DNA of 64,000 nucleotides, taken from positions 1 through 64,000 of the forward strand of contig NW_027450442.1 in NCBI RefSeq assembly GCF_964194025.1. The letters run 5' to 3'. This document shows positions 4,501 to 37,400 of the stretch, piece after piece. Position 1 is the stretch's first letter; the number at the start of each line of letters is the position of its first letter. The notes under the pieces were generated by a model. That model had not been told where the DNA came from and searched no databases. It worked only from the letters and a program-made list of their open reading frames with translations. Position numbers and translations under genes: made by a program. The stretch comes from Convolutriloba macropyga (taxonomy: Eukaryota).

Positions 4501-4735
4501 AGCTTGGTTCCTGTCGTGGGGCTGAGAAGATTCCTACACCCGGTTGGAACAGCGGGGTAGTTTTCGGGTATGCACTGAACCTTTTGTCAGTTCTGTCCTG
4601 TGTGACATTCTTAGGAGGGTCGACCACAACGTTTGGTGATAGTGGCCGGCTAGGATCGGACTGCTCGGCTACGGATTTGAGCCAGTCCTGCGATATTGCT
4701 GGCTTTTGTCTGGATCTCACACTTTCGATTATCAC
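1493..4735 (-). pseudogene. BEL/Pao gag-protease-reverse transcriptase segment (1080-aa ORF)
   Basis: ORF track: DUF1759-like capsid, CFNCLRTGHRSRDC knuckle, CDTGSSISF protease, NFYMDDFL RT. Ends at a frameshift near 1540. Confidence 0.95.
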
Positions 4736-4757
4736 CTGCTTCTGATCCAGATGCTCT

Positions 4758-5738: not shown

Positions 5739-5880
5739 CGTAAGAATTTCGTTATGGTCCACCAATTTGAATCGAAGATTCTTTGCTGTTCGTGTCACTG
5801 TTGTCTGGATCACTGTTATCCAGATTACAGCTCTCCGGGTCACTGTTGTCCGGGTATCTGATTCGTGTTGTCGTTGTTGT

Positions 5881-5896
5881 CCGGGTCGGCGGACCA
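5881..5896 (-). promoter_or_regulatory. Primer binding site of the BEL/Pao element (TGGTCCGCCGACCCGG)
   Basis: TGG-initiated motif 2 nt after the LTR end ...GCAACA. Resembles the tRNA-Tyr-type PBS (TGGTCCTTCGAGCCGG) common in BEL elements; the primer tRNA is not verified. Confidence 0.8.
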
Positions 5897-5898
5897 AA

Positions 5899-10283: not shown

Positions 10284-10597
10284 TGTGGTGAGCACCTGGC
10301 TCACACAGTAACCAAGCAACTAAACGTATTAATATAAACTCTTACAAGACTCAAAATGTTATTATATTTCTTCTTCTATTGTTGTAAATACGTAAAGCGC
10401 ATTGTTCACTCTTGCTACTTGGTTGTACCAGTTGTCATTCTTAAACTCCGATCGGAGCGCAATAGCTAAGTGCACTCGGTGTCTTAAGCAAAGAAAAAGA
10501 AGTTCGTTGAAGAGTTAATTCTTATTGCGCTAGTCTTTTTACTGCCTTTGGCTAAACAACAGACGATCACCATCGACGAGATTTGGTGGACACAACA
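10284..10597 (+). repeat. Gypsy 3' LTR (about 314 bp)
   Basis: Starts TGTGGTG after the PPT and ends CACAACA (6/7 inverted match); AATATAAA TATA-like motif near 10331. Confidence 0.8.
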
Positions 10598-13500
10598 ATT
10601 NNNNNNNNNNNNNNNNNNNNNNNNNNNNNNNNNNNNNNNNNNNNNNNNNNNNNNNNNNNNNNNNNNNNNNNNNNNNNNNNNNNNNNNNNNNNNNNNNNNN
10701 NNNNNNNNNNNNNNNNNNNNNNNNNNNNNNNNNNNNNNNNNNNNNNNNNNNNNNNNNNNNNNNNNNNNNNNNNNNNNNNNNNNNNNNATGGATTCATCCC
10801 TAAGTTCGACTATTGCTAAATTTTTTGTATTCTGTTTTTCATTGCTCAAATAAAAAAACTTATTTGGTGAAAAATTGATTACTTTAAATTTTTTGTACGA
10901 TGGTCCCTCAATAATTCACTGTGTATGATAATTCCCCCATATTTAATTGTGGTGTGTATAATAGGTCGCCATAATAAAAATAATACTAATAACANNNNNN
11001 NNNNNNNNNNNNNNNNNNNNNNNNNNNNNNNNNNNNNNNNNNNNNNNNNNNNNNNNNNNNNNNNNNNNNNNNNNNNNNNNNNNNNNNNNNNNNNNNNNNN
11101 NNNNNNNNNNNNNNNNNNNNNNNNNNNNNNNNNNNNNNNNNNNNNNNNNNNNNNNNNNNNNNNNNNNNNNNNNNNNNNNNNNNNNNNNNNNNNNNNNNNN
11201 NNNNNNNNNNNNNNNNNNNNNNNNNNNNNNNNNNNNNNNNNNNNNNNNNNNNNNNNNNNNNNNNNNNNNNNNNNNNNNNNNNNNNNNNNNNNNNATGAGA
11301 ATAATAATTTTTATTATAATCATAATAATAATGTTAACAGTAAAAATTATACTAATGTTTTTATTATTACTATTTTTATTATTGTTATTATTATTATTAT
11401 TACTATTATATTTATGAAAATTATTATTAACATTGTTATTATTAGTATTATTATTATTTTTATTATTACAATATCTTTTTATGGATCCATCTCTTAGTTT
11501 GACGATTGCTAATTTTTTGTCTCAATCCTCTCCATCTATCAGAGAAAGCAATTCATAATTGTTTTTTAGAAATGGTTCGATCAAAGTCTTTTGTCATTGT
11601 TTTACCTTCAAAAATGGATCTCTAACAAATAATAATTGTCTTCCTAAAGATTTTTGGCTTAATTAAATTCATGATTATATTTTTGATTAAATTCCAATTT
11701 TTCAAAGCAATTTGATTTAATTGTTACATGTATGTTTGCTTGTACACCTATAATTTTTCACCCAAACTGTTGTGATAGATGATAATGATTGGTTCGACCA
11801 ATCCTGTTTAATACCATTGTCGTTGCCACTAGCACGACTAATTAAATTCCAAACATTGTGTTTTGCATTCATATTGATATTTTGATGTATTTCTAAAAAA
11901 AATGATTGATGCTGTAGTTGTTAGATTGTTTGCTTTCATGCTGCCTGTTGGTTTGTCTAGTATAATCTGTTTCTTGTTAATTTTTTCTCACTTCAAGAAA
12001 AACTGAAAGTGAAGAGCATTTTACTTTGATCTAATTCTAATTCTAAATCTATTTAGATTCATTTTTATTAGATTTTAGCAACAATTTCAAATTTTGAGCT
12101 TAAGTCATCAAGATATCCCCTGTTATATGTTGGGTTTTGTGTGTTTTTTTACAATGAAAAATTCCTATTCGAAGTAGACTTGAACAGCTGTTACCGAATC
12201 CGTAACGCTAAATCTGCGGTTTACCAGTGCACTAGCTGTCTATTGAGAGTGGCGCAGGATATGCTACATATGACAAAAATTTCCCGACTGCGAAGATCAA
12301 CTGGCAAAAATAAAAGAACCGAACTCTGTCAAGTTCTTACCGGCTATTGAGCAGAAACATATCTGCACATCCACTTCAAGAACTGCAAAGGCAGCTCTGG
12401 ATGCTAATCGCGAGTAAAAGGAGAACAAACCCGCTGATCTGAAAAACATCAAAGCAGGCTGTTGTATAGGAAGCCCTCAATATTTTTTTAAAATAATTTG
12501 ACTGTTTGATAGGACCCCATTTTTAATAAAAATCAGGATTTAAAAGATGTTTAACTTGGTTTTTTTGCGCAATTTTGTGTTTATTCCTTGTTTTTGTCTT
12601 CGTCTTCAGTCGGAAGTTTAATTCGCATAAAAACGTGGTCAACAATTTTTGTATAAATGGGCCGTTAAATTATTTTTTAGCATTTGTCTGGTATGAGGCG
12701 TCCCAATTACTAAAAAAATTGTCTGTTTTTTGCTATAAGGCTTTTATTTGCAACAACGAATGCGCGTTTACTGTGGCCCAGTTTGACATCGTAAATTGAA
12801 AATTACAAACATCACCATGGAGATGGAGGAATTTTTTCGGTTATGGTGCGCCCTCAATAATTTTTATTTTAGCGAACGAAAAATTAGGTCAATTAAAAAT
12901 ATGTTCCCGAAAAGATGTTCATACTTTAAACTCAGCAGGGACGCTTTTTTGTATTCTGTTTTTCATTGCTCAAATAAAAAAATTTATTTGGTGAAAAATT
13001 GATTACTTGAAATTTTTTGTACGATGGTTCCTCAATAATTCACTGTGTATGATAATTCCCCCATATTTAATTGTGGTGTGTATAATAGGTCGCCATAATA
13101 AAAATAATACTAATAACATTATTAATANNNNNNNNNNNNNNNNNNNNNNNNNNNNNNNNNNNNNNNNNNNNNNNNNNNNNNNNNNNNNNNNNNNNNNNNN
13201 NNNNNNNNNNNNNNNNNNNNNNNNNNNNNNNNNNNNNNNNNNNNNNNNNNNNNNNNNNNNNNNNNNNNNNNNNNNNNNNNNNNNNNNNNNNNNNNNNNNN
13301 NNNNNNNNNNNNNNNNNNNNNNNNNNNNATGAGAATAATAATTTTTATTATAATCATAATAATAATGTTAACAGTAAAAATTATACTAATGTTTTTTTTA
13401 TTACTATTTTTATTATTGTTATTATTATTATTATTACTATTATATTTATGAAAATTATTATTAACATTGTTATTATTAGTATTATTTTTATTTTTACTAT

Positions 13501-14399
13501 TACAATATTTTTTTTATGGATCCATCTCTTAGTTTGACGATTGCTAATTTTTTGTCTTTGTCCTCTCCATCTGTCAGAGAAAGAAATTCATAATTTTTTT
13601 TTAGAAATGGTTCGATCAAAGTCTTTTGTTATTTTATTACCTTCAAAAATGGGTGAATAACAAATAAAAATTGTCTTACTAAAGATTTTTGGCTTTATTA
13701 AATTCATGATTATGATTTTGATTAAATTCTAATTTTTCAAAGCAAACTGATTTAATTGTTACATGTACCTTTGCTAGTTCCCCTTTAATTTTTCACATAA
13801 ACAGTTGTGTTAGATGATAATGATTGGTTTGACCAACCCCGGTTTAATACTATTGTCGTTGTCATTAGCAAGACTAATTAAGTTCTCAACATTGTAGTTT
13901 GCATTGATATTGATATTATGATGTATTTCTAAAAAAATAATTGATGCTGTAGTTGTTAGACTGTCTGCTTTCATGCTGCCTGCAGATTTGTCCAGTATAA
14001 TATGTTTCTTGTTTTTTTTTCTCACTTCAAGACAAACTGCAAGTGAAGAGTTTTTTACATTGATCTCATTCTAATTCTAAATCGAATTAGATTGAATTTT
14101 ATTAGATTTTAGAACAAATCTTTCAAATTGTGAGCTTATGTCATCATGATATCCCCTGCTTTATAAGTTGGGTTTTGTGTGTTTTTATATAATTAAAAAC
14201 TCTCTATTCGAAGTAGACTTAAAATTTTATAAATTTTTCTTCAATTCTTATATAGTCACCCGTTTTTTTCTGAAATTTTTCACTATAAGTCACAAAACAG
14301 TCATTTTTATAATTGATATCAGAGGCAAAAACTGGTTTTATTTTTTATTTAAATCTGAAATATGTAAATTAAACTAACCACTTAATTAATGTTACATTA

Positions 14400-16817
14400 T
14401 AGAAACTTATTAATCAAACATTAATATTTTCTAATTCATAACAAGATAAACTTAGGTTTTCTTAAAATAGTTTAATAAAAAAATTTGGTTGAATCCTGCA
14501 ACCTTTCTGTCTATTGAAACTCTTTCGTGTCGTTTAAGCATTTCCGCTGCAACTTTTTGTTTAAATTTGGTCTTCGACGTTTCTGTTCTAATTGTAATTG
14601 GAAGTGTATTCCTTTTTCGTATAAAGTTAAGAACAATTGAACCATTACTCCATTTTGACTTTCATTTTTCTTCAAAGAAAAGGTTATGGGTTCGTTTGTT
14701 TGCAATGAATGGCACGTTTTCTAAAAATCTGAACTGTTTTTTAGAGCAATTTTTTGTTTGTTCGAGAATATTGACAAACCCATTTAATGACACCCGTGTT
14801 ATTTGGAGCCCTGCTTGAAAGATTTTAGTCTCCAGAAGTAGATCTTTGGCAATATCGTATTTGGTTTTCATAAAGCAAACTTTTATGTCCCAGTTTATCT
14901 GTTTGTTAATTCTGTCAATAGAGTAAGATCGTAAATTTTGAAAAAAAATGCACTAAAATCTAAATGAGACAAAACTAGTGATTTAAAAAGATTTTTTCTT
15001 ATTTTTTAACGGTACCTGATAACAAACCAAATATAATGATTTGATTGCTGAAACTATTTTACTGATAACCTATTTAGTTAATTTTGGTATACCAGTTCCC
15101 AATCAATTATTACACCTAAATATCTACCTTTTTCAGATGCTTCGAATCGGTGTCCTTTGGAATCGACAGTTTCAATGATGGGCAATTTTTCATTCCTGAA
15201 CTTTATTAACTCCTTTTTTTCCTCATTCAACTTTAACTTGTTTTCTTTCATATATTGTTCTGTCTTGGAACACCGTGATTTACGAAATTCCAATCTAATT
15301 TTGTGATCTCAATTTTTACACTCTGTTTTCTATCACAAAGAAAGGAGTTTAATAAGGTTCTTGCATTCTCTTCAATTCCATACCTTTTTATTTTGTTCAT
15401 AAAAACATCTATAGATATTGAGCTGAAAGCCTTTGCTAAGTCTAAAACAACTGTGACAACAATTTCGTTTTCGTCAACGCATTGGTCTATTTTTTCAGTT
15501 AATGAAATGATAGTATCGAGACAGGACTTTTGCTTTTGAAATCCGAATTGATTCTTGTTAATCAGACCATTAAGATTTATGTGGTGAGTTTGTTGTTCAA
15601 GTAGTAATTGCTCAAAAAATTTAGCTAGAGTTGGTGACCGATATGGGTCGATAGTTTTCTGGTTCTAGTGAGTCTCCTTTCTTATAAACATGTGTAACAT
15701 GGGCTGTTTTCAAAACATTAGGAAACATTTTCGTTTATACATTCATTGACAACAAATTGTAAATGAGTTCCAATAGAGAGTTTACTATCTTTTAGCGCCC
15801 ATGCTGTTATGTATCCCAGTCCGGGCAATTTATGCGTAGGTAGAATACTAATAACATTATACAATTTTTTTTCTGGTGACTGGTCGGAAGCTAAATTCCG
15901 GTCACTCAAATGTTAGGGAAAAATGACTTGGAGAAAAGTCTTTGCCTTTGTATAATCTGAGCCCCGCAAAACAGTTATTAGGAATATTGGCAATCTTTCT
16001 GTCATTCTCAACAAAATAACTATCTTCCCTTAATTTGTCAATTTTTTCTATTTGACTGTTGGAGTTGATCCTGTTTTTGATGAAGTTCCATTGTTTTTTT
16101 GAAGTTGGTAGCTGCTGGAAAAAACTTTTTGGATAATCATCTGCAGCTTTTTTTAGTTTTCTGTTCACTGAATGGCGTAAAGACTTGTAAAAGTTATAAA
16201 TTTATGGATTTGGATTTTTCTTCCACGCAATAAAGAGACAGTGTTTTTCACTTAAAAGACTACGTAATTCCTTTGTCAATCACTGCTTTTGTTTTTTTGG
16301 TATTAATTTCTGCCAACTTCAAAATTGCATGACAATTCAGTATATTTTCGAGAATGTCAATAAATTTCAGAAACATTTCGTTAGGCCCATTTATCTGGTA
16401 TATAAGCAACAAATCTTGCAGCGCAATATCACGATTCAATTTTGATCTTAAATATTTCTTGGTATTACGTATCAAAAACTGTCTTTTCTTGTTACTGTGA
16501 TCTATTATTAATGATGAGTGATATACTATTGTGAAGTGATCAACTCCAAGAGTCGACTCTAGAACATTGGCCTCAAAACTTTGGTTCTTCGAAATCAAAC
16601 AGTGATCAATTACAATTTTTTCCCCATTTGTCCATGTTGCCTCCGTTTCATTAACGTAACATAGCCCATTGTTTGCTGTGAAAATATCAAGTGACTGTAT
16701 ACTTTTGCGCCTAACAAGTTTATTTTGTAATTTCTGAATAAAATTAGAGTATCTGTATACGAATACACTATTTGCGAGTAAAAGGAGGACAAATCCCCTG
16801 ACCTGAAAAATAATCAT
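14400..16817 (-). pseudogene. CR1/L2-like LINE ORF2 remnant (end of AP endonuclease, RT with internal deletion)
   Basis: TWTNG...IDHCL...LGVDHFTI (APE end), SIGTHLQFVVNECI, KKGDSLEPENYRPI, VLDLAKAF, NHGVP followed by a deletion that removes the YADD region, then RYLGVIID. Clearly homologous to ORF2 at 43135-46048. Confidence 0.9.
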
Positions 16818-17866
16818 AGCAAGTTGATGTATAAGAAGCCCTCAATATCTTTTTGAATAATTTGACTGTATGATAGGACCCCATTTTTAATAAAAACCAG
16901 GATTAAAAAGACGTTTAATTTGGTTTTTGTGTGCGATTATGTGTTTATTCCTTGTTTTTGTCATCAGTCGGAATTTTAGTCGGCATAAAAACGTGGTCAA
17001 AAACTTTTGTATAAGTGGGGACTAATAATTGTTTAGCATTTGTCTGGTATGAGGCGTCCCAATTATTTAAAATAATAACAATCCCTTTTTTGCATTATGC
17101 ATTTTTTTGCAATAACGAATGCGCGCTTACTGTGGCCCAGTTTGACATTTTAAAGTGAAAATTACAAAACTCACCCTGGAGGAGGAGGAGTTTTTTGTGT
17201 ATGGTGCGCCCTCAAGAATTTTTATTTTAGCCAACGAAAAATTAGGTCAATTTTTAATATGTTGCCGAAAAAATGTTCATACCTGAAACTAAGTATGGAC
17301 GCTTTTTTGTATTCTGTTTTTGATCTCTCAGCCGAATATTAAGCCTTTTTTGGTAAAAGTTTGTATACCAAAAATTTTTTTGTACGATAGTTCCTCAAAA
17401 ATTCACTGTGTTTGATAAGTCCCCCATATTAAATTTGTGTTATGTATAATAGGTCCCCATAATAAAATTAGTAGTTATAAAAACAATAATAATAATAATA
17501 TAAAAATAAAAATAATAATATTAATAAAATTAATAATAACAAAAAAAAGTTTTAGTAAAAGAAATGATAATAATAACTTTTATTTTAATCATAATATTAA
17601 TGATAACAGTAATATTTATACTAATATTTTTATTATTACTATTTTCATTATTACTATTAACATTATTATAAAATTTATTAGTATTATTATAATTAATATT
17701 AATATTATTACTNNNNNNNNNNNNNNNNNNNNNNNNNNNNNNNNNNNNNNNNNNNNNNNNNNNNNNNNNNNNNNNNNNNNNNNNNNNNNNNNNNNNNNNN
17801 NNNNNNNNNNNNNNNNNNNNNNNNNNNNNNNNNNNNNNNNNNNNNNNNNNNNNNNNNNNNNNNNNN

Positions 17867-19404
17867 TTTAGTTTTCTGTTCACTGAATGGCGTAAAGACT
17901 TGTAAAAGTTATTAATTTATGGATTTGGATTTTTCTTCCACGCAATAAAGAGACAGTGTTTTTCATTTAAAAGACTACGTAATTCCTATGTCAATCACTG
18001 TTTTTGTTTTTTTGGTATTACTTTCTGCCAACTTCAAATTTGCATGACAATTCAGTATATTTTCGAGAATGTCAATAAATTTCAGAAACATTTCGTTAGG
18101 CCCATATATCTGGTATAAAAGCAACAAATCTCGCAGCGCAATATCACGATTCAAATTTGATCTTGAATATTTCTTGGTATTACGTATCAAAAACTGTTTT
18201 TTCTTGTTACTGTGATCTATTATTAACGATGAGTGATAAACTATTGTGAAGTGATCAACTCCAAGAGTCGACTCTAGAACATTGGCCTTAAAACTTTGGT
18301 TCTTCGAAATGAAACAGTGATCAACTAACAATTTTTTTCCCCATTTGTCCATGTTGCCTCTGTTTCATTAACGTAACATAGCCCATTGTTTGCTGTGAAA
18401 ATATCAAGTTACTGTCTACTTTTGCGCCTAACAATTTCATATTGTAATTTCTGAATAAAATTAGAGTATCTGTATACGAATACACTATTTGGGAGTAAAA
18501 GGAGGACAAATCCCCTGACCTGAAAAATAATCATAGCAAGTTGATGTATAAGAAGCCCTCAATATCTTTTTGAATAATTTGACTGTATGATAGAACCCCA
18601 TTTTTAATAAAAACAGGATTAAAAAGACGTTTAAATTGGTTTTTGTGTGCGATTATGTGTTTATTCCTTGTTTTTATCATCAGTCGGAATTTTAGTCGGC
18701 ATAAAAACGTGGTCAAAAATTTTTGTATAAGTGGGGCCTAATAATTTTTTAGCATTTGTCTGGTATGAGGCGTCCCAATTATTAAAAATAATAATAATCA
18801 TTTTTTTGCATTAATGCATTTTATTTGCAATAACGAATGCGCGCTTACTGTGGCCCAGTTTGACATTTTAAAGTGAAAATTACAAAACTCACCCTGGAGG
18901 AGGAGGAATTTTTTTGTGTATGGTGCGCCCTCAAGAATTTTTATTTTAGCCAACGAAAAATTAGGTCAATTTTTAATATGTTGCCGAAAATATGTTCATA
19001 CCTGAAACTAAGTATGGACGCTTTTTTGTATTCTGTTTTTGATTTCTCAGCCGAATATTAAGCCTTATTTGGTAAAAGTTTGTATACTCAAAAATTCACT
19101 GTGTATGATAAGTCCCCCATATTAAATTTGTGTTATGTATAATAGGTCCCCATAATAAAATTAGTAGTTAAAAAAATAATAATAGTAATAATATAAAAAT
19201 AAAAATAATAATATTAATAAAATTAATAATAACAAAAAAAATTTTAGTAAAAGAAATGATAATAATAACATTTATTTTAATCATAATATTAATGATAACA
19301 GTAATATTTATACTAATATTTTTATTATTACTATTTTCATTATTACTATTAACATTATTATAAAATTTATTAGTATTATTACAATTAATATTAATATTAT
19401 TACT
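17867..19404. repeat. Near-identical tandem duplicate of 16152-17712
   Basis: Direct comparison; ORFs 17975-18352 and 16260-16817 encode almost the same peptide. Bounded by N gaps. Confidence 0.9.
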
Positions 19405-20648
19405 NNNNNNNNNNNNNNNNNNNNNNNNNNNNNNNNNNNNNNNNNNNNNNNNNNNNNNNNNNNNNNNNNNNNNNNNNNNNNNNNNNNNNNNNNNNNNNNN
19501 NNNNNNNNNNNNNNNNNNNNNNNNNNNNNNNNNNNNNNNNNNNNNNNNNNNNNNNNNNNNNNNTTTTTTAGTTATGGATTCATCCCTAAGTTTGACTATT
19601 GCTAAATTTTTGTCTCAATCCTCTCCATCTATCAGAGAAAGCAATTCATAATTGTTTTTTAGAAATTGTTCGATCGAAGTCTTTTGTCATTGTTTTACCT
19701 TCAAAAATGGGTCCCTAACAAATAATAATTGCCTTCCTAAAGATTTTTGGCTTAATTAAATTCATGATTATATTTTTGATTAAATTCTAATTTTTCAAAG
19801 CATTTTGATTTAATTGGTACATGTATGTTTGCTTGTACCCCTATAAATTTTCACCCAAACGGTTGTGATAGATGATAATGATCGGTTCGACCAATCCTGT
19901 TTATTACCATTGTCGTTGTCGCTAGCAAGACAAATTAAATTCCAAACATTGTGTTTTGCATTCATATTGATATTTTGATGTATTTCTAAAGAATGATTGA
20001 TGCTGTAGTTATTAGATTGTTTGTTTTCACGCTGCCTGTTGGTTTGTCTAGTATAATCTGTTTCTTGTTAATTTTTTCTCACTTCAAGAAAAATTGCAAG
20101 TGAAGAATACTTTAATTTGATCTAATTCTAATTTTAAATCTAATTAGATTCAATTTTAATAGTTTTTAGCAACAATTCTTTCAAATTTAAGCTTATGTCA
20201 TAATGATTTCTCCTGTTTTATAAGTTGGGGTTTGCGGATTTCTATTTCATTAAAAAACTCTCTATTCAATTTAGAATTGTAAATTATAAGTTTTTCCTCA
20301 ATTCTACTCTAGTCAACTGTTTTTAATTTCTGGTATCTTCCATTAGAAATTACAAAACACTCATTTTTATAATGGATATCAGAATCATATTTAACCAATT
20401 AGCATCAGCACTGATCAACGCTGGCTTTCTAAATATTTGTAAAAGTTTTTTTCCAAATCTGTCTGTAAAAGAGCTTTTAAGTCACTGTAAAATAAAAAAA
20501 AATCTGGACAAGCTGTTTAGTAAAGATTGAATTGTTGTCTTATAAAACAGCTACCCCTCTCAATCCGAGGACTTTCCATGAACTCTACCTTCGGAGATAC
20601 TTTGTAGATCTGCTAAATTTTTCTTTCATTTTTTAGATTTATCAGATC

Positions 20649-21126
20649 AGAAATGTTTATATTGGCGCCTCCGCTAGCATGAGCTGCGATCGGCACCCAT
20701 ATAAACATTACTTTATTTCCCTTTGTTTTATCCACTATATTTCATTTTCTATTCCATCAAAATCTATCATTTCGTGTCTCACTTGGCACAGTGGTTAACT
20801 CGTTGAGTTGAGTTAAGTTGCCTTAGCAAACGGAAGGTTTGGCGTTCCTTCCTCACTGTCTCCAGTGAACGTCCCCCGATTTGATTAATTACTATTAAAC
20901 TAAGTGAGATAAAAAAAACAAAATTCACAGTTCTTAAAGAGAGTGATCCCTGCTTTGAGACTCTATACGGGACACACTGTGATGGGTATAAACTCAAAAA
21001 CGCTGAGATCGGTAGCAACACAGTGATCAGTGTTTTTACGTTTAGTATAACGTTTTATAATAAATCAAAAATTGATTATTCATATTGTTTCATTTTCAAA
21101 ATTAATTTTTATCCAAAATACCAGCT
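20649..21126 (+). repeat. Left terminal inverted repeat of the Maverick-type element
   Basis: Reverse complement of 25355-25832; the mirror ORFs 20779-21021(-) and 25460-25702(+) reflect this. Confidence 0.95.
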
Positions 21127-21159
21127 CAACTCTGTTATAGATATTGACTCATGGTCTAA

Positions 21160-21902
21160 GACTCATAAAATCTAAACTCACCATTACAATTTTTAATACC
21201 TTTATCGTCAAATGGATCAATAGCTATTTTGTATTGTTCTTTTGTTTCTAAATTATGTTTTTTTACTATCAATAGTATAATTAGTTACATATTTACTTTT
21301 TGCATCATAAATAGCATTTTTATAGTCTTCAATAGTAATTTGGTTTTTAATGGTAGCTTCTGTTATAACTTTTATCTTTTTCTCTTCCTCTCTTTTAAAT
21401 GTATTAAAACAATATGCTTTATCTTTAAGGAATCCGGATTCTATAATAGTATCAATAGGTATTTAGTCTTTCATTTTACCTAACTCCGAGTTGTGTAATA
21501 TATCTTTTATCTTATTCTTTCCAGTTTCTATATCATTATCTAAAAGAACATTTATGTTTTGAAAATACTATCAGTATCTGTGTAATGATAATCATAATAT
21601 AACTTTTTCTCAAAGTATTCATATATAGCTTTATGAATAAACATTTTAGCTTTCTTTCTTATAACAAAACCATTATAAATAAACTTCTCTAACTTAACAC
21701 TACCTCTTGGTTAATGTACAGCCATTAGTGCATCATCCAACTCTACAGAATATTCAAAACTAAAATATTTTACAATTTTAATATAACTATCCACATCATT
21801 AACTAACTCTACAACTTGTCTATTGTACACAATTTCTTTTCCATAGAAAGCATTATTCATTAACTTAAAGAATACATCACCAAATTTATCTCCCTTAGCT
21901 TT
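21160..21902 (-). pseudogene. Protein-primed DNA polymerase B, C-terminal fragment (second, inverted copy)
   Basis: FKLMNNAFYGK (motif B), HYTDTDS (motif C, about 21570-21590), ELGKMKD, KIAIDPFDDK; stops and frameshifts present. Confidence 0.92.
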
Positions 21903-24900
21903 CAATCAATTAAACATAAAAAGAATGAGCGAGTATATAATAGAAATAAATTTACTGAGAGTGCTAATGTAAATATAGAACAAAAGATAGATAAACAGAA
22001 TCCTGAACTAGAGGGAATAAAGTATTGTGATAATTGTGACATGTATCTAAATAATAATACTGAATATAGAAAACAAATAGGAACCCTAAAACATAGGAAT
22101 AATGTAAGGATAAATAATGGGAAAATAATAAAGAATGGCAGTAAGTTTGAATGTGTAACATGCAAGTCTACCTTAAGTGAATATAGTGTGGATCAACATT
22201 TAAAAACAAAGATGCATCTAGATAATGTTAAGGGTAAAGATAAGGATAATATATCTAAAGATAATTTTGAAACGCGGTCAATGACCCATAATATAACTGA
22301 AGATAGTACAGGCTATTGCGATACATGTTACCCTAGATATAACAATAAAAATAAACACACTGAATCAGATGAACATAAAGAAAATGTTAAACAAAAAAAG
22401 CTTGCTGATGGTATGTGGAGAGAGAAAGTGGTGAGTTAGGATTAGATCATAATATGAAGTATATTCAAATAATAATAACAAGTGGTAATTATGAAGAACC
22501 TAAATTGTTGAAAGTATTAGAGACAATGTAAAACATACATCCCCATATTAAGTTTAACACCTTTGATGTAGTAAAATATACAGAACCTAAAGATGATAAG
22601 TTAGAAGAAAATGAATTCATTCACATTTAGACTAACGACTAGACAACATAATGGACCTAATGACTTGGATATGATTAATAGTGAACTTGAGACTAGAATG
22701 CAAGAACAAAAAATGAAACAATCTGGTTGGAGCATGCAAAGATTTTTTAAAAGAACTATGTATATGCACAGGTTTTATCCTAGTGGTGGTTGTCATGTAG
22801 AACTTCACTTCAATCAAGATGTATACTTAATATACATAATAATGATAGTAAAGGTTTATTTGGGCGTTTAATAGCTTATCTACATCCTGCTAAATGTAAG
22901 TTTAATAGAACTAGTAATTATAATAAAACTGAACATAAAAATGAGATAAAACTACCAAAGTTTCCACCTCCTTATGGATAAAAAGATAAAAAGAAAATGC
23001 AAGAGTTAAACAAAGATAAAGTATTATTTAATGTTAACTTAAGTTATTTAATATAAATTAATCTAAATAAAAAAAATTGATAATCTTGTTTTAATCAATC
23101 ATAATGATCCTAAAGGATGTAAGTTTTTATACTGGAATAATCATTATTTCCTACGTAAAGATGTATCATTTTTATTAAGATCATCTACACATAAATATTA
23201 TCCATGTCTAAAATGTTGTGTGTTATTTCGAACTGAAAATGCGTTAAATAAACATTTAGAATTGTGTAATAATATTGGAAAAAGAATATTCCATCTTGAT
23301 GATTATCTAAAGTTTGATAAGTTCCACTATTAAAACAGAGTACCATTTGCTATGCATCATGATTTTGAATGTATAATAAAAAACAGAAATTACATTCCTA
23401 TTGCTTTTGGGTTTTATATATAAAAAGTGATTATTCTGATATCTTAGAAGATAAGTAAGAAAGTTTTTGTGGAGAAGATCCACAAAATGGCGGCTGGACC
23501 GAAGTCTTTGATTGGTTTATAAGTAGGATGAGTTATTATGATAAATTATTCAAAGAGATATTTAGTATAAATATTCCATTAAAAGGAGATAGTATTACTC
23601 CACTTCATATTGAATGTTATTATTGTAACGAAGATATGAGTGAAGACATTGTTAGAGATCATGATCACCTAAATGGTAAATATAGGGGATATGCTTACAA
23701 TAAGTGTAACCACCAATCCAAGTACATTTTTGTACCAATATATACATTTAATTCTACTAATTATGATAACCACCTATTTATAACTAAACTAGCAAAGAAG
23801 ATAAGACTTAAAGTATTGACTAAAACTGATGAGAATTATAATTGTATTGATATGAGTCATGCTAAACCATCAGATATGTTTAGGTTGTTCCATCCACTTA
23901 GCTTAGATGGTATAAGTAAAACAATGAATGATAAAGAGTGTGTAACAGTAAACACATTTGAGTAAGAGAGACAAAAATCTATATTCCCATTTGAATAGTT
24001 AGATAGTATAGATAAACCTAATGAAACATCATTACCACATAAGGAAGTATTCTGTTCTAAGTTGAAAAAAGTGGTATTACTAATGAAGAGTATAAGCAAG
24101 CATTAGATTGTTGGAATGAGTCTGGATGTGAAACAATGAATAAAATTTATGATGTCATATCTTAAAACTGATGTATTATTACCAATGGATGTATTTGAAA
24201 GGCTAAAAGATAAGTGTTTAGAATATTATGAAATGGATCCTTGTTACACATATTCCACTGATGTATTGTTACCAGTGGATGTATTTGAAAGGCTAAAAGA
24301 TAAGTGTTTAGAATATTATGAAATGGATCCTTGTTACACATATTCCACTCCTGGATTAACTTGAGTATGTGGATTGAAAAATACTAATGTTAGACTTAAA
24401 TATTATAAAGAAAATACAATTAATTTTTATGATAAAAACATCATGTTATTAGAGGTGGGTTAGCTTCACTATTGGTTGATTGTCATGTTGAATGTAAAAA
24501 TAAACAAATAGATCCTAAGTATAGAGGTAAAGAGAACTTTTTAAAATACTTAGACTTCAACTCATAATATTCCTCTGCCATGGTGCAAGCTTTACCTACT
24601 GGTGTAATGATCCAGAAACTGGCTTTGCAGAAAATAATTCCATCAGCTCTAGTAATAATACAGGCTATATCTATACCATTGGTGTAATGTATAATGATGA
24701 GTTTCAACAAAAAACAAAGAAGTATCCTTTCTTTCCTGAAAAGACAAAGGCTAAGATTGATCAGTTTACATATTATCAAAGTGAAAATGAAAAGCAAAGA
24801 TACAAACCAAATCAAAATTTGATGTTACAATTAACGGATAAGGCAGACTATGTAATTGATGGAGAGATGTTAGTTTGGTATTTAATTAAAGTTTTAAGGT

Positions 24901-25253
24901 TGGAAGATGTTACAATTAAGCAAAAGTTAGAGTATAGTAAAAGTGAAAGATTAAAATCTTATATTGAGTTTAACATTCAGAAAAAAAGAAGCTAAAGCTA
25001 AGGGAGATAAATTTGGTGATGTATTCTTCAAGTTATTGAATAATGCTTTTTATGGAAAAACAAAAGAAAATGTGTACAATAGACAAGATTTAGAGATAGT
25101 TAATGATGTGGATAGATACATTAAATTAGTGAAACATATCAGTTTTTAATATGCTGTAGAGATTGATGATGAACTAATAGCTGTACATAAAACATGAGGT
25201 AAAGTTAGAGAAGTTTAATTATTTTGGTTTTGTTATATTGGAGAAAGCTAAAT
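21903..25253 (+). pseudogene. Protein-primed DNA polymerase B (Maverick type) with N-terminal C2H2 fingers; lacks start and motif C
   Basis: QSGWS motif, HDFECII (Exo I), CYYC...VRDHDHLNGKYRGYAYNKCN (endonuclease VII-like insert), FNSTNYDNH (Exo II), YLKTDVLL (Exo III), IRGG, YLDFNS*YSSAM (motif A), FKLLNNAFYGKTKEN (motif B). Many stops and frameshifts. Confidence 0.93.
24167..24346 (+). repeat. 90-bp in-frame tandem duplication inside polB
   Basis: 24167-24256 repeated at 24257-24346 with two substitutions; peptide TDVLLP(M/V)DVFERLKDKCLEYYEMDPCYTYS occurs twice. Confidence 0.95.
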
Positions 25254-25354
25254 GGGTTTTAGACCATGTTTCAATATCAGTGATGTTGATTCGAAGATTA
25301 TTAATTTTTTCATATAAATATTAGCAAAAGAAATTAACAATCATAAAAGATTTA

Positions 25355-25832
25355 AGCTGGTTTTATTGGAAAAAAATTAATTTTGAAAATGAAACAATAT
25401 GAATAATCAATTTTTGATTTATTTTAAAACGTTATACTAAACATAAAACACTGATCACTTTGTTTCTACCGATCTCAGCGTTTTTGACTTTATACTCATC
25501 ACATTGTGTCCCATATACAGTCTCAAAGCAGGGATTACTCTTTTTAAGAACTGTGAATTTGGTTTTTTTTATCTCACTTAGTTTCATAGTAATTAATCAA
25601 ATCGGGGGACGTTCACTGGATACAGTGAGGAAGGAACGCCAAACCTTCCGTTTGCTAAAGCAACTTCACTCAACTCAACGAGTTAACCACTGTGCCAAGT
25701 GAGACAGGAAATGATAGATTTTGAAGGAATATAAAATGAAAAATAGTGGATAAAACAAAGGGAAATAAAGTAATGTTTTTATGGGCGCCGATCGCAGCTC
25801 ATGCTAGCGGAGGCGCCCATATAAACATTACT
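25355..25832 (-). repeat. Right terminal inverted repeat of the Maverick-type element
   Basis: Reverse complement of 20649-21126; ends ...CATATAAACATTACT. Confidence 0.95.
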
Positions 25833-27102
25833 CAGATCTTCTCCTTAAAAAAGGCCCAAGCATAATTTCAAAAACTATCTTTACTGTTAATCTTTAAAAA
25901 AAATTGCATGGTTTTTGTTTGATAAAATTTTGTGTTTTAAACCTACTGACGTCTCATCTTTATATAGTGGCATAGGTCCTTTCTTTTTTAAAATCTGTTA
26001 GTGCATTAATAAATAGTTCTCTGGAGAGTTGTCGTTGTTGTTCTTATTGATGTTTCATTAGGGAACCTGCTGTTGACATAAGCGTCATTGCAGCTTTGCT
26101 CCTCTACTTTAATTTGAAACAAAGTTAACTGAATAAATTATTTGTGTAACTATTATCCGTGGCTAATTTTTAGATAGCTTACACTTCCCGTCATTTATTG
26201 TCTTATGTCCAGCCTTTGTTTTTAGCATTCTAATTTTTCCACTAATTTTATTGGATTCACTTGTTTTTCATCCTCAATTTGTTTTTAATAGTGCTTTTTG
26301 TTCATTATCAATATAATTACCAATTTTTTAATAGGATATTCAAAAGTTAGATAAAATTATTCAAAAAAAATTTTACTCATCTTTTTTATAAAACTCCGAA
26401 ACCAATTCGGTGATTTTTAGTTCAATTTGTTTTGTTATTGGACAGGAAAAATCTAAGCTAAAATTCAGTGTCGCACATCGAATACTCATAGTACAATTAT
26501 TTTTGATTCAATCGAGAAACGTATTTTGTTTCTAAAACTGACCGAATAAATCGTTGAAGTTGACAGATTTATGTTTTCAAAATTGGAGCAAAATTGAAAC
26601 ACATTTATTCCATCTCATTTGGACATTTAATTATCTAACCCGGTTTGAGAAAAAAAAACGGAAAAATATGTAAGGTAAGCGGTGAAAAGTTGTTTTTTTT
26701 CGCCGCGATTTGCGTACATAATGTTGCCGTGAAATGCGGTGAAATTATGTAAGTTCACCGCTACAAACGAGCGAGCGTACACGGATTCGAAACTCTCACC
26801 TCCTGAATGTCCGCCACTTGTTCTTCCACTGCTCCACTTCTCACTATAATCAAGCATATCTGTTTTGAATTTAAATCAAATTTACTCTTCATTTTGTAAA
26901 ACAAACGCGTTGAACTTTTGAAAGATTAGCGGTGAAATGTGGTGATTTTTTGTAACTTCATTGCTTACTCTAGTGATGAAATTGCATAAATTCAGCGCGT
27001 AAAAAAAGTTTCAAAAAGATGTATGACTGGTCGTGGGTAAATTTTCGGAGATAATTTTAATAAATGTATCTTAACTTCGTTGAACAAAAACAAATCGGAG
27101 CG

Positions 27103-27398
27103 TTTTCTAAGCGATGAAATTATGTTATTTCACCACTAAGTTAAGTGGTGAATTTGTGTAATTTTATCTCTTTCACTGCTGATCTCACACAATTTTAACA
27201 CTATTTCTAAGCAGTGAGTTTATGTAATTTCATCACTAAGTTACGCGTTGAATTTATGTAATTTCACTTCATTCACTGCTGTTCTCATACAATTTTAACA
27301 CTTTTTCCTAAGCGGTGAAATTATGTAAGTTTACCTTTTAGTTTAACGGTGAATTTATGTAATTTCACCGCATTCACTACTTATCGTACATAATTTTG
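27103..27398. repeat. Three tandem units of about 99 bp containing palindromic GGTGAAATTATGTAATTTCACC-like motifs
   Basis: Units begin TTT(T/C)CTAAGC at about 27103, 27203 and 27303; related motifs at about 26735-26762 and 26930. Confidence 0.8.
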
Positions 27399-28149
27399 AG
27401 TTGAATGGCGGTGACGCCTCGACCCGGGAAGTGTCATATCCCAATTACTAGCTTCCTGGTCCCCAAGGAATATACGATTTCTCTGACTTCGATGTCCGGT
27501 TTCAACTTGGCCCCTGAGTGACCTAATGTGACTTTTCAGAGCACTTTGCTCGGTTTTCAGATCATCGTTTCGGGACTCTCTTGTAAGGGAGACAAAAGAG
27601 GAAGCACATATTCTTTCATGTGATTATGCGAGTGTTTGTAATTTTAATTTGGATATGTCGGTTCATCAGGACTATCAAAATTGTAAAATGAGCGCCATCA
27701 TCAACGTCTATCTGATTACTCTACTCGAGAACAATTGTTCCGTCTGTATATGAACATATTGTTTGACTAGTAGTTTGACTATTAATTGACTCATAAACGG
27801 AGAACCATGCAAGATCTTGGGAAATTGATTGACATCAACAAATTTCAGTGATGATCTGTGTACAATTTAAATGCTAATTGCATGTTAGCAAATAGAGAAA
27901 ACCAAAAAGGCGTACTTGCAAAGTTTAAGATCCCAACATTCGACCTCTTCGTTTTTTCTGTCAGCTTAATGACTTGCTAATGGTAACATGACTTATGGTC
28001 GAAACAATTTTTTATGGAAAAACTGGTTCCAGCAGGCAACAATCACTGATCGAGTGAACTATTTTCGTTGTCTAAGACAAGAAACCAGAAGGCCAGAGGT
28101 AAATTTGTTTTCCGCTGCAGGAGAATCATGAAAAAAACGACAAATCACG

Positions 28150-31100
28150 ATGTCGATTTCTTCAGACGGCTGGCTTGAAGCCGAGAATTTTAAGACTTAT
28201 GTTATACTCAATGGCATTTCCGATGCAAATGTATGTTTAAAATGCGGATTAATTTTAGAATTAGTAAGTGGTAATTGCGTCGCAAATGGTGTTTTAGGTG
28301 GTAATTGTGATGCAAATGCTTTATTGCGTATATGTGAATTGGTATTTAGTAATGTAGGTAGTTGCGGCGCGGATGGCCGTTTTAACTTGTGTGAAGGCAA
28401 ATTTGACTTTTATATGTCATTAAATTTTTTAGTTGCGTTTTGTTTGTTTGTAATCAGGTGTTTCATAGAATCACGGATTTTTGATATTGTTGCTACAACG
28501 AAGTGTTCGTCATATGTAGATATCTTTTTAGCTCTCGCATATAGGTTCCTTGAAATATAGTCAACGAGACCCATTTTTGCACCTGGCAAATATTCTATTG
28601 TTAAGTTGTACGGAAGTAGTCTGTCTATCCATTGTGATAGTCGGCTGTTATAAGATTTGTTTGATCTGTGCTCCTTGAGTATGGACAGTAGAGCTCTGTG
28701 GTCTGTTACTACTGTAAAATTTTTTCCGTACAAATAGTATTTAAAATAGTCAACTGACCAAACTATTCCCAATAGCTCCAACTCATTATAACTATAGCGT
28801 TTCTCTGTTGAGTTGAGGAATCTTGATGCGAATGCTATTGGTTTCCAACTGTCTGGTGTATTTTGCTCCAATGCTGCTCCCAGTCCGGAACTGGAGGCAT
28901 CACATTTGACTCGAACATCATGTTTTGGATTATAGTGGCTATTTTCTGTGCTATTGGCAATTTTTTCTTTGATCAGATCAAAATGTTTTGTGTGTTCTTG
29001 TGTCCAGATAAACTTTACTGATTTTTTGAGAAGTGGTCGAAGTGGGTGACATAATTGTGCAAGCAAGATGTGGTATGAATTCTCCAATATAGTGTACTGA
29101 CCCTAAAAATGATCTAAGGCGTTTTAGTGTTGTTGGTGGTGGTATTGTTAAAATTGCTGCAGTTTTACTTTCTAGGGGTGAGATTCCAGTTTGTGTAAAC
29201 TTATAACCCAGCCATTCAATTTCGGTTTTTGCAAAATGACATTTCTGAAGATTAATTCTTAGATTATCGTCATCTAATTTTTTTAAACATTTGAAAACAT
29301 ATGCCAAATGGTCTGCTTCAGTGCCGGTACTGACGATTATGATATCGTCCAAGAAACAATATGTGTTTTGTAGACCTATAAGTGTATAGTCTATTGCTTT
29401 CTGAAATTCTGCCGGCATATCTGTAAGACCATAAAAACCAGTTTTGAATCTATATGTACCAGTAGATTCTCCACAGATGATGTTAAAATTACAGTGTTTT
29501 GCTGTGTCGTGGTGTAATTTTAATTGGCTATATGCATACTTTAAGTCTAATGTGGTGAAATAAGCTTGTTGACCGTTTTGTGTGTTGGTAAGGTGTTGTG
29601 ATATTGTATCAATTAGCATATCAATATTGGGCATTTGATATTTATTTTTATGTATGGCTTTATTTAATACTTTGGAATCTAATGCGAGTTGTATTGATTG
29701 GTCTTTCTTTACTGTGATAACGATTGGGGAGATGAAATGTTCGTCAGAGCAACTAGATAGTTTTTCGATATGACCTTCTGTCTGTAATATCTCTAATTCA
29801 TCCGACACTCTAGGTTGTAGATTTATCGGAACACGTCGACCTTTTTGATGCTTTGCTGTAAACTTTTGATGAACCTTTGATTTCGCTACATGTGTTTTAG
29901 ACAAACCAATTCTTGATACCTAATGAGGAAATTGCGTCGCGATTGTCTCTTTAATTTTACATGTAGAGGTATTAATGTTATTAACGCATTTACCATTTTC
30001 TGGTTGTTGTTGTACCACCGCAAGTCCCAGGGTTGTGAAAAGGTCCCTCCCGATTATGTTTCTGTGCCCATCTTCTACCACAGTCAACATAGCTGCTCTA
30101 TCTTTCCACTGATTGTAGGTTACTGTGGTTTCCAAATGTCCAAGAACTTTTATGGGTTCATTTGAAAAAGTTTTCAAGTTCCTTCTTTCTTTCGTGTCCG
30201 TCCACTTTGCAGATTTTGTGGTTCGGAGGGTTTGGTCTGCCAAAGTTTCTGTTATGATGCTAACTGCACTTCCAGAGTCGATCATTGCGAGTGCTCTAAT
30301 TTCTCCCAGTTTTACCTCTACATTTAATGGTTCCAGTTCATGTACCGAGTCAGACGAAATCACCGCCACGTAATCGTCCGAATCGCTGTCGTAGTTTGAG
30401 TCATACACCTGTTCATACAGTTGTTGGTATCTTGTTATGTAATTTACGGATTCTTCATCATCACTCGTTTCGGGAGACTGGTCAAATTGATTGACGTTCG
30501 TTTGTTGGGCTCTCTGTGTTTGTCCCTGTGACTTTTTCGGTTTGCGGCATTTTTTTGCGAAAGGGCCAATAATGCCACGATTATTACATTTCTTACCATT
30601 CGCGGGGCAAATCTGCGTATGGTTATGACTCCAACGAAGGCCACAATTCATACATTTGCTTGTGTATTGGTAATTCTGGTGCACAGTTGCGTATCGTGTG
30701 AAATCTCGCTTGGTTTGCGTATTTGGTTACTGTTGATTGAATTGACAGGATTTGTGCCTGACATCAAATTCCGGTTTATCTTTTGCTGATTCTGCGCCCC
30801 CATGTCCATTTGCATAGCTATCTCCAATGCTTTGGATTGCTCGACTTCTCTTTCAACAGTTCTTTTTGAGTCTCATGATCAATCATAATCGATATGAATG
30901 CATTGCAAATCAAGGTAGTTTCTTCACTACCAAGGGTACAATTTTCCGCTAGTTCTGTGAGACGACCATAGAAACTTTCAACAGACTCTCCTGTTTGCTG
31001 CTTACATGAATAGAAAACAAAGCGATCGTAAGTTATGTTACGAACTTTCGTGAAAGAATCCTCCATTGACTGCCACAATTCTTTGAAAGGTTGTTTCTCT

Positions 31101-31534
31101 ATTTGGAAGTGGGGGTGTTTACTCCTGAAACTTCGTCGTCCCTCCGTTCCAATACTCAAATACAACAACGATATCGTTTTTTGTTCGCAAATTCCCCACG
31201 GCTTATCTCCACACAAAATTCCAATCTCCTCAACCTTTTTACAACGATTTTGCCAGTTTACTTTCAATTGTTGATTACGGACTTTCTGATCTCTTTCCGT
31301 CGCTTGTGTATGATTTTCTACTGGCTCTTCATAAGTTGGTTCAGGCGGGCAAGTTACTGTTGCGTGAGGATCTTTTAGCAGATTGTCTAATTGGATTCCC
31401 TCTTTAGCTAGTAGTGCTAGTTTCCACTGTTGTGTCCATTTGTCACAAGTCAGAGGAAGTGTTGCTGCCAGCTTTTCCCAAAATGCCTCTATGTGAAGTG
31501 GTGTCTTCTTAGAGTCCGTTGCTGACTGCGTCAT
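28150..31534 (-). mobile_element. Ty3/Gypsy gag-pol remnant (gag, protease, RT, RNase H); no integrase or LTRs found
   Basis: Gag from MTQSATD (31534) with QQTGESVESFYGRL and degenerate knuckles; MIDSGSAVSII protease; LDLKYAYSQL, CFLDDIII RT; CDASSSGLGAAL, ELELLGIVW, VTDHRAL RNase H. Premature stop at 29920 and frameshifts near 30820 and 29070. Confidence 0.95.
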
Positions 31535-32219
31535 GTTATACTCAATTGCAATGGGTAGATTCAATTGAGTTGCAAATGCTTTATTACAAGTCGAACTGAG
31601 CGATTGCGCCGCAAGTGGCAAGCCAATTTCTTATATCCGATTTACTAATATCTAGAATGGTCAATCGCGGTGCGATTGGCACTTGTCAAAATTACTGAGC
31701 TTAATTGAAAAGCGTTTTGCAAGATTTAAATTAAACTGAATTCTAGCGCTGCAAATGGAAGACTGAAATTAAAATGATTACATTTTAAGAAATAAGGTTT
31801 GTTCAACTCGATCACGAACAAGGAATTAACTTTAAGATTTGTTTATAGTATGAACAAATGAATTTCCTGCATAGACAGTATGAACAGACATTACTTTACT
31901 AAAAATGGGAGGAAGTAAAGTTAACTGAAATAAGAACAGCACTTGCCCTTCAAATGGAACTAAATGATGCAATTGAACTAAATACGGACATGGATATGTG
32001 AAGGGTATCCATTGCCGAATGACAACTTACGTTGAAATACGTTGATGCTGAAATCAACGAGCAAAACGCTTGTAAATGTAATCTTTCCTTCATTGTGATT
32101 ACCAAAATTGCAGAGCTTTACGGACGATATTCCAGAAGAAGAGAAGGGAGAGATTACTTCAGAACTGTGAAAAAACTGAAACAAAACAACACCGACAACT
32201 AAATATCTATCCATTATTT

Positions 32220-34467: not shown

Positions 34468-37400
34468 CTAAATCAAACTAAGATTGAACTTGAAAGATTT
34501 GAGATTAGAATTAAATTCAGAAACCGTTGGGTCTTTTAGAAACTCATTCCAGAAATGATTTTTTATTATAGTTTTGAGAGCCCGCTTTTTAGGGATATTT
34601 CGCCTCAAGGTGAGAGGCAAATCGTTATACCAGTCAATTGCTTTTTTTGAAAAACAGTTTTGCATTATATTTGTTTTTTGGTTTGCTCCAAATGACAGCT
34701 TGTTTGTACGGTCATTCATTTTAGCACTTAGGATGGCTAACTTGAGTTCATCGAAAGCTGGTAGATCTGCTTTTAGAAGCTTTATAAAATATATAATAAC
34801 CCGATACTTTATGAGGTATTCTACTGGTAAAATTTTGTGTTTGATCTTGAGATCAGTGGTCCTGTCAAATTTGGTTTTATTGAAACGTGCCTTTATTCCC
34901 CAGTTCAATTGTTTATTTAGATTAACTCGAAGTGATTTTTTAAGACCTGAGAACAGAACAATTGGGTAATGCAGATGACTTAAAACAAGAGCGTTCAGTA
35001 AAGCAGATCTAGTTTTTTCAGGAAACATATTTTTGATGGAATAAATGACCTTTATGCCAACAGCGATTTTTCTTAGCACAATTTTTATTTCTTCATCGAA
35101 AGAAAGATTACAGTCAATATGAAATCCCAAGTATTTCACAACTTTTTTCTCGAGAACTGTACATCCGTTAACAACTATTTCTTCGATTTTGTTTCTTTTA
35201 GGGGCTCCAAAAATAATGAATTCGGTTTTGCTTTCATTTACATTTAACTCATTTTTCCTAAAAAAGTGAATGAGTTTAGCAATACTTTTTTCAAGATGTA
35301 ACTTTGATTCATCAATTGTTTTTCCACTGCAAAAGATAAAAGTATTATCAGCGTACGGGGTTATATTAGAATTAACATCAGTATCATCTTTCATATCATT
35401 TACATATATGTTGAAAAGCAGTGGGCCTAGCACAGTACCTTGTGGTACTCCACGGTTAAGTGCTATCCATTTTGATTCATACTTCGAGAATTTGACTTTT
35501 TGCACACGGTTTTCTAGATAAGATTTTAGAATTGTATTTGCTTGTGCACTAAAACCTAAAAGTTAAGTTTTGTGCAGAAGAATAGGATGTGATATCGAAT
35601 CAAAAGCTTTAGATAGGTCCAAAAAAAGGTCCTGTGACTATGTTTTTTTTATTGAGATCATATCTGATTTTTTCAGTGCAATATAAAAGAGCAACTGTAG
35701 TTCACAATTGTTTTCTGTATCCAAACTGTGTTGTTGCAAGCAATTTATTCTTCTCTAAATAGGCTAATATTTGATCTTGAAGAAGGATTTCAAAAATTTT
35801 AGCTAGAGCTCCAGTAAGCGAAATTGGTCGATAATTTATCGGATCTTCAGGATCATCTTTCTTGAAAAGAGGCAACACGTGGGCACGCTTAAGGTGGTCA
35901 GGAAAGCGTTGTTCGGTTAAGAATTGGTTGAACAAAACAACAGAGAGGTTCAGCTCTGTGATCTCTTGCATCTTTTAAAGCCCAAGCTGGAATGAGTGAT
36001 GAACCCAACGGTTTTTTAACATTTAAATTGTTGAGTATATCAAATATCTCCTTGGTTGTCGTTTACCTGAATATAAATTTGTTACTGTTGCGTGCCGGAT
36101 TATTACAAAATTGATACTGTTCTTTTTTTACCAAAATATTCACCTAACGCTGAAAATTTATAGTTGAGAAGATTGGCAATATCATTTCCATTGGTCAAAA
36201 CCGTTCCAAAACTGTTTTTGAGTCTTGGTATTTCTGTCTGTGTTTTTTCACAGTTTCTGATTTCGTTGATAAAATTCCACCTTTCTCTTGTACCTTTTAA
36301 GTTTTGAAACACATCTAGCAGATGTTTTTCATTTTCCTGCTTCAAAACATTTTTGTTCTTTTTATTTGATGTCTTTGCAAACTTTTTTACTGTGTTTTTT
36401 GATATCCATTGTTGATGTAGCGTTAGTTTAGGCTTGTCATGGCGTATGAAGACGGTCTTTTGTGGAGCATGCTTTTTAATTACCGTTTCCAATGACGAAC
36501 AAAAGTTTTTATACATGATTTCATGATTTTCTGATAAATAAAATGATATCCAATTTATCTTTCCAATATCTAGGGAAAAAGCATTTTTAGAGTAGTTTGT
36601 TTTATCAAACACAATTTTTTTGATAGCTTCTTTTTTATATTTAAGGGTTTCACCAATTAAAGTAAGCGGGGCTGAGTGATCACTTTTTAGAATCGAGTCT
36701 AGTGTCTGGAAACTAAAAAAATTTTCGCATATAACATAGTCTATTAGCGACTTCGTTCTTGACGTTTCTCTTGTTGCTAAAGTTTTATTTGAATTCAATA
36801 ACCGTACGTCAAGATCAGAGTTTCTAGGAGATTTCTTTCATTGCAATTAAATTAATTAAGGTTGTTGTCACCTAGTAGAAAAATTTTTTTATTTTCACTC
36901 GCTGCTCTATCTAAACCCAGGGCTAGCTCTTCCAAAAACAAATTTATTAGTTGTTTTTTTTTGGACAGTAAGCCAAATTTATCAACGCGGGCTTTTTATT
37001 TATTTTACACTCTACCCAAACACTTTCAAAATGGTTTTTTGACATTGTCTCTAGATCATTTCGTTTTTTGGATGAAATTTTTCCAGAACAAACAAAAGAA
37101 TACCACCGCCTTTATTTTTCTCTTGAAGATCAGTACGTCAGTCGCATCTGAAGGACACTAAGTATTCTGAGTGTATCGACCAAAACGGAATATCGTTAAT
37201 TGATTTCAACCACGTTTCTGGGAAGCCCGAAATACAGTTGTCACCTAGGTCAGTTAGAAAATTCTTAAGGAGCAACCTTTGTCCAAGCACTCTTTGACAA
37301 TTTTGATGTAGAAACTTTACTTGATCGTTGTATTTTTCATTAAGGTGGTAAACTGCCTGTAATTGAGAGGTGGCCCTGGGTTTAATTCTACGTCACCTGA

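Follow-up and report, generated by a model that had tools for sequence, protein, structure and literature searches.

The window, a stretch of 64,000 nucleotides, contains a 5,184-bp unit that is bounded by terminal inverted repeats (TIRs) and flanked by the 6-bp target-site duplication (TSD) CAGATC (20643-20648 on the left and 25833-25838 on the right, both on the plus strand). The left TIR (20649-21141, plus strand) and the right TIR (25340-25832, minus strand) pair with each other over ~470-490 bp at 94% identity, and the outermost 64 nt of each form a terminal palindrome, at 20649-20712 (plus strand) and 25769-25832 (minus strand), respectively. Most of the interior is taken up by a plus-strand polymerase gene (pPolB; 21901-25252), which is broken by many stops and frameshifts; a terminal-protein-like S-G-W loop lies near 22720, and a weak endonuclease VII-like zinc motif lies in an ORF at 23459-23965 (PF02945, E 8.5e-5, under the Pfam cut-off). 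Near the left end, the C-terminal part of pPolB is present a second time as a broken, inverted copy (21162-21884, minus strand), which is 70-82% identical to pieces of the polymerase found with the same hairpin type, called type A here. The pol region as a whole shows 77-82% nucleotide identity to that of a 17-kb type A relative. The integrase, capsid, ATPase and putative protease of the relatives have no tblastn match in the window copy; it is thus a decayed, non-autonomous Polinton derivative with polymerase pieces only. A 13.3-kb version with flanks matching those in the window (G000:C6:3528133-3541486; 82-90% identity in matched blocks) is a haplotype or segmental duplicate of the window element.

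Elsewhere in the window, BEL/Pao retrotransposon ORFs occupy 1493-6089 on the minus strand (DUF1759, RT, Peptidase_A17), and further retroelements are represented by reverse transcriptase and RNase H remnants at 28410-31630, 34468-35562 and 44065-45261. An AT-rich block at 10500-20250 comprises repeated units of ~1.7-2.0 kb, short tandem arrays and several N stretches. Two other tandem arrays lie at 26736-27404, with ~100-nt units built of 34-nt self-complementary subunits, and at 51560-51895, with a 16-nt unit.

Coordinates and folding bear out the description of the two ends as self-complementary 64-mers that differ at four positions. Read from the outside in, they differ at positions 3, 15, 47 and 54 (4/64); folded as DNA, the left end reaches -15.1 kcal/mol (z -4.75) and the right end -25.9 kcal/mol (z -9.30), and 0/200 shuffled 64-mers fold equally well. 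Block shuffles of the window (n=10) yield 0-2 arm pairs each at a threshold of at least 17/21 matches and a 15-40-nt spacer. Both palindromes consist of a 21-nt outer arm, a 22-nt spacer and a 21-nt inner arm, and have the same outside-in loop orientation. The earlier note had drawn them with a 21-bp stem and a 22-nt loop; the stem stands, pairing 18/21 positions on the left and 20/21 on the right, but the loop is itself partly paired, which extends the hairpin by an imperfect upper stem whose own loop is 4 nt. Further in, the left TIR holds a decayed second inverted end motif (20725-20739, plus strand; TIR position ~78-91), which matches the inner arm of a different hairpin type, B, and is clearer in the copy of the right TIR.

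The assignment of these ends to a Maverick, or Polinton, was sound: TIRs, a 6-bp TSD and pPolB are all present. The TIRs have AG...CT tips and measure ~490 bp in the window and 120-700 bp in the relatives; the TSD is exact in 7/11 type A pairs, including that of the window, has one mismatch in 2/11 and is absent in 2/11. The polymerase gene, broken in the window, is recognized as pPolB in a type A copy (PF03175, E 6.9e-13), and the catalytic motifs are found in family members. Longer type A and type B copies additionally carry an integrase (with a weak rve match, E 1.1e-3), a double jelly-roll (DJR) capsid (PF21738, E 5e-16) and an A32-like ATPase (PF04665, E 7e-8), and the hairpin family is therefore Maverick/Polinton, as defined, with its polintovirus and adintovirus-type members, in the accessible text of PMC4196379 and PMC11296320. 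The polymerases of types A and B are only ~27% identical, yet their integrases are 68-78% identical and their capsids similarly close (L076-L077 versus L169, G000:C2), which suggests that the polymerase was exchanged within a single capsid lineage. The type B pPolB ORF of L169 contains a long, in-frame expansion of a low-complexity repeat (L169:3947-4827). Two type A derivatives, the 13.3-kb copy on C6 and a copy at G000:C12:8986924-8996994 (L089-L090), have inverted polymerase pieces and no capsid or integrase match, and resemble fold-back defective genomes; the two flanks of the C12 copy are inverted copies of each other.

Terminal hairpins of three types, unrelated in sequence, are found. 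A genome search with both 17-nt arms exact gives 103 type A sites of 63-66 nt; type B, unrelated to type A past the AGTA tip, has 882 exact-arm sites of 117-126 nt; and type C, with 116 nt, occurs in one element. All three fold flush from nucleotide 1 (z -8.3 for A, -13.4 and -12.8 for B, and -6.6 for C, whose nucleotide 1 pairs with the last base), and every end examined begins at the outer arm. At the 78 sites that have a type A inner arm together with the internal TIR, the outer-arm core is exact in 60, mismatched in 12 and damaged in 3; the other 3 are type B ends, in which the inner arm of type A survives as a relic further in. None of the 78 is a type A end that cleanly lacks the hairpin, in keeping with the universality across the family that the earlier note had raised. 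The TIRs of the dominant B subfamily, at 128 and 136 bp (120 bp in another B copy), are little more than the hairpin, so that the terminal cis signals common to both ends must sit within it. Extra inverted end motifs occur in the TIRs at positions 64-65 and 91 in type A, at positions 118 and 204 in one B subtype, and four times in type C, which suggests that ends have been re-made from different internal motifs. The terminal hairpin is a real, clade-wide and structurally conserved end feature of hundreds of Polinton copies.

A search of sequencing runs listed 7, all of them assembled contigs and none from RNA. Among these, low-depth contigs under two other organism labels, which may be close relatives or mixed samples, cover both hairpin types, a weak indication for other organisms. 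With the polymerase alignment as query, 102 distant loci are obtained (80 from metagenomes, 22 viral), mostly 26-46% identical, with two at 55% and 68%; no AGT...ACT terminal hairpin is seen in these, most of the contigs stopping short of the element ends. No relative turned up among viral contigs when individual polymerase pieces of types A and B served as queries. A short palindrome of opposite polarity at a contig edge (L237) was left out of the counts. A 157-bp remnant (G000:C11:3133007-3133163, L085) consists of two type A hairpins joined via 25 nt of TIR, with no matching 6-bp duplication, and is probably a product of recombination or deletion.

The two arms of the hairpins change together. 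Among 21 type B ends, 9/25 stem pairs have changed on both sides and 97.9% of cells are paired; among 18 type A ends the values are 5/21 and 94.2%, as against at most 51% paired in slid controls, the rows having been picked to span subtypes and being mutually related, which the shuffle control ignores. As far as such alignments go, the mirrored changes show that the arms are coupled but do not by themselves demonstrate selection. At 3/30 loci of the type B search (L133, L147, L155) the arms are hybrid, and genome-wide the upper stem of type B shows one conversion from the outer to the inner arm and one from the inner to the outer, leaving a directional conversion of outer from inner arms unsupported. 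Counts of outer-only against inner-only cases (47 against 11) were set aside, since the way in which the ends were collected biases them. Conversions in both directions would be in line with hairpins that have no function, arisen as template-switch accidents at the ends and kept in register by passive arm-to-arm copying and homogenisation of the TIRs. The existence of a plain-ended lineage (M, described below) points the same way, and accidental annealing is given as an alternative in the accessible text of bioRxiv 10.64898/2026.07.28.741278. This origin is nevertheless quite unlikely: three unrelated hairpins are all flush at nucleotide 1, ~1,000 ends from two polymerase types carry hairpins, and the lower stems are near perfect while mismatches in the upper stem stay fixed.

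The loops do not occur in the mixture of flip and flop orientations that the earlier note had considered. Inverted loops number 0 among 100 listed of the 112 type A sites, and 1 among 100 listed of the 169 anchored type B ends; a further 36 type B hairpins, partly overlapping these 100, are all in the standard orientation. The listed type A sites comprise 35 convergent pairs (70 sites), of which 34 are spaced 13.6-21.4 kb apart and one is the 157-bp remnant, and 30 singles, each followed by the internal TIR on the expected side (30/30). The sole inversion occurs in a type B copy of 5.8 kb (G000:C9:38610811-38616633; L165, L291) and affects its left end; the right end is standard and the TSD, TACCAA, is intact. 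Hairpin transfer of the type found in AAV leads to about half of the loops being inverted, and is therefore rejected for the elements studied here. The fold-back step that the earlier note had proposed for replication or end repair accordingly divides: repair of ends by folding back is plausible, but replication by hairpin transfer disagrees with these counts. A hairpin could still prime replication from its 3' end, as proposed for the virophages of Halocafeteria, if resolution were asymmetric, as at the left end of minute virus of mice, and so kept one orientation. A flush 3' hairpin would be a ready primer, the one inverted loop lies in an element with an intact TSD, and hairpin priming as such is set out in the accessible part of the same preprint. 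We consider this unlikely, given the scarcity of inversions; furthermore, no Rep/HUH nickase or helicase family is found in a Pfam scan of 68/80 ORFs (at least 110 codons) from four longer, decayed copies, in which broken or divergent genes could escape, and the motifs of terminal protein and vOTU-like domain are kept.

The ends are also very improbable as mini-transposons in their own right, which would make the 5.2-kb unit a composite transposon shedding free hairpin elements. Such an arrangement could be read from the tip motif, which each hairpin shows on both sides, and from short elements that have this 18-nt tip as well and are flanked by 6-bp duplications. Hairpins standing alone with their own TSD, however, which the earlier note had envisaged for the 64-mer, number 0 among the 100 listed type A sites, where all singles are attached to a TIR, and 0 among the 36 type B hairpins fetched. 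Nor do the ends correspond, as had been suggested, to the 108-nt mini-element at 52965-53072 (unstranded; duplication AGTGAA): only the first 18 nt are shared with the 64-mer, with 17/18 matching, and the mini-elements come from another lineage, with lengths and interiors that vary by site. The set of these elements, drawn from 40 scored of 65 candidates, has 17 sites with paired ends and lengths of 108-328 bp, of which 14/17 have a 6-bp duplication at 0-1 mismatch. Since their interiors match the end of lineage M (70-91% in matched pieces) yet differ in length or content between sites, they would be better explained by M elements that each lost internal sequence independently than by a MITE that amplifies. 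The element at 52965-53072 is an internal-deletion relic of this hairpin-less sister Polinton lineage rather than a 64-mer set free. At G000:C1:85.88-85.89 Mb (L075), a larger unit includes several M-type mini-elements, 164-171 bp in length, in tandem repetition.

Lineage M has the same 18-nt tip, and its capsid genes are 46-78% identical in matched pieces. Its ends are plain: both of the ends attached to a capsid gene (2/2), which are old fragments, do not fold (z 0.49 and -0.36). An exact search gave 6 matches and no complete M element; a 22-kb copy at C6:44.51-44.53 Mb, considered as a full M element, was ruled out, being type C. Given the plain ends of lineage M, some Polintons of the genome do without the hairpin.

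The polymerases of both types likely keep putative terminal-protein and vOTU-like domains, as judged by motifs. Among pPolB homologues, a loop flanked by Gly contains Ser or Tyr in 37/38 rows, the vOTU-like Cys is present in 37/38 and the His in 36/38; type A keeps these residues too. The same TP-vOTU layout at the N-terminus of Polinton pPolB is described in the accessible text of PMC11071308; a PDB profile search bearing on these domains gave no relevant match. Both polymerase types further have weak Pfam matches to Endonuclease_7 (E 2.5e-5 and 8.5e-5, the latter value also in the window), and the DHxH/CxxCN motif does not vary across 38 rows. T4 endonuclease VII resolves cruciforms, and the palindromes might likewise act as release signals for an integrated provirus: a cruciform would be extruded and cut across the junction, at the boundary between flank and outer arm, by the endonuclease VII-like domain of pPolB or by a host resolvase, and strand-displacement synthesis starting at the nick would restore a blunt end from nucleotide 1, leaving the loop unchanged. 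Such a cut predicts exactly the fixed orientation and the start at the outer arm that are found, and would, if true, provide a mechanism for the exit of Polintons from the host genome, for which the literature consulted offers a model. We regard it as rather unlikely, however. A cut along the opposite diagonal should yield inversions, which are rare; only 1/3 of the Endonuclease_7 matches reaches the curated threshold; distant pPolBs commonly have the domain as well; and such insertions in pPolB are taken for relics of homing endonucleases or inteins in the accessible part of PMC11071308.

The 64-mer is, in our view, a conserved terminal palindrome of an animal Polinton clade and likely a folded end signal for protein-primed replication, a reading in which we place middling confidence; its role would most likely be that of a structural end signal or of an end-repair template for protein priming. 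Two pPolB types as far apart as those of A and B share the terminal hairpin, which supports this reading; the plain ends of lineage M, the conversions in both directions and the hybrid arms count against it. As protein priming is likely retained and the loop orientation is fixed, the simplest role for the hairpin would be on a displaced single strand. Strand displacement by pPolB would free a 3' end; folded back to pair flush with the inner arm, this end would present the tip to the terminal protein and polymerase, and terminal bases that had been lost could be restored with the inner arm as template, as in the telomeres of Streptomyces. Protein priming would reset the new 5' end and so keep the orientation of the loop. 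An end that folds onto another of the inverted end motifs within the TIR could give rise to a new hairpin type; this would account for the relics of the type A inner arm in type B and of the type B inner arm in type A. The initiation of copying in Polintons and their exit from the chromosome have been modelled, without a test in the literature consulted; for both, the elements described here provide natural controls, with ~1,000 ends, three unrelated hairpins, a hairpin-less sister lineage and a subfamily in which TIR and hairpin coincide, and they narrow the cis signal to 64-124 nt.

In the rolling-hairpin ends of parvoviruses and densoviruses and in the flip/flop telomeres of poxviruses, a longer inverted repeat is capped on its outer side by an imperfect terminal hairpin. 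The ends studied here share this architecture, with an imperfect hairpin outermost on a longer repeat; they differ in showing no mixture of flip and flop, in the lack of any Rep/NS1 among the ORFs scanned, and in integrating with a 6-bp duplication. For bidnaviruses, the repeats form no hairpins according to the accessible text of PMC4061559. The elements otherwise resemble animal Mavericks/Polintons, with their length of 15-20 kb, TIRs, 6-bp TSD, AGT...ACT tips, pPolB, retroviral-type integrase, A32-like ATPase and double jelly-roll capsid. The standard model for these, in the sources as far as accessible, pairs the TIRs in a panhandle ('racket') and names no terminal hairpin; here each end itself forms a flush palindrome, beyond which the TIR of one subfamily hardly extends. 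In the literature searched, subscription papers and Repbase lying outside it, terminal hairpins are not reported for animal pPolB Polintons, and the accessible portions of PMC11296320, 10.1101/2022.05.25.493380, PMC12721341 and 10.64898/2026.10.13.758929 contain nothing on such hairpins.

That replicons with protein priming have no need of terminal hairpins, as the earlier note had held, is too strong a statement: the telomeres of linear Streptomyces replicons, in the accessible text of PMC5449611, combine protein-capped ends with a terminal palindrome, whose 3' fold-back serves as a template for priming and for the repair of truncated ends. They differ from the present ends in being bacterial, with an internal origin, the proteins Tap and Tpg, and a palindrome of 13 nt that is one among several; the parallel is one of analogy only, without homology. 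Terminal palindromes in integrated elements are described in the accessible part of bioRxiv 10.64898/2026.07.28.741278 (2026) for the virophages of Halocafeteria seosinensis and one PLV subtype, which have mostly non-pPolB replicases. As here, these palindromes lie in TIRs beside the TSD (52 nt in a figure legend of the preprint), and the elements have an RVE integrase and integrated copies. The Halocafeteria elements, however, are from a protist and mostly lack pPolB, and hairpin priming is proposed for them in the text accessible; here the host is an animal, the Polintons have two kinds of pPolB with terminal-protein-like motifs, and the orientation counts argue against symmetric hairpin transfer. 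Terminal palindromes do not imply that protein priming has been lost, and the association drawn for the protist virophages is qualified accordingly.
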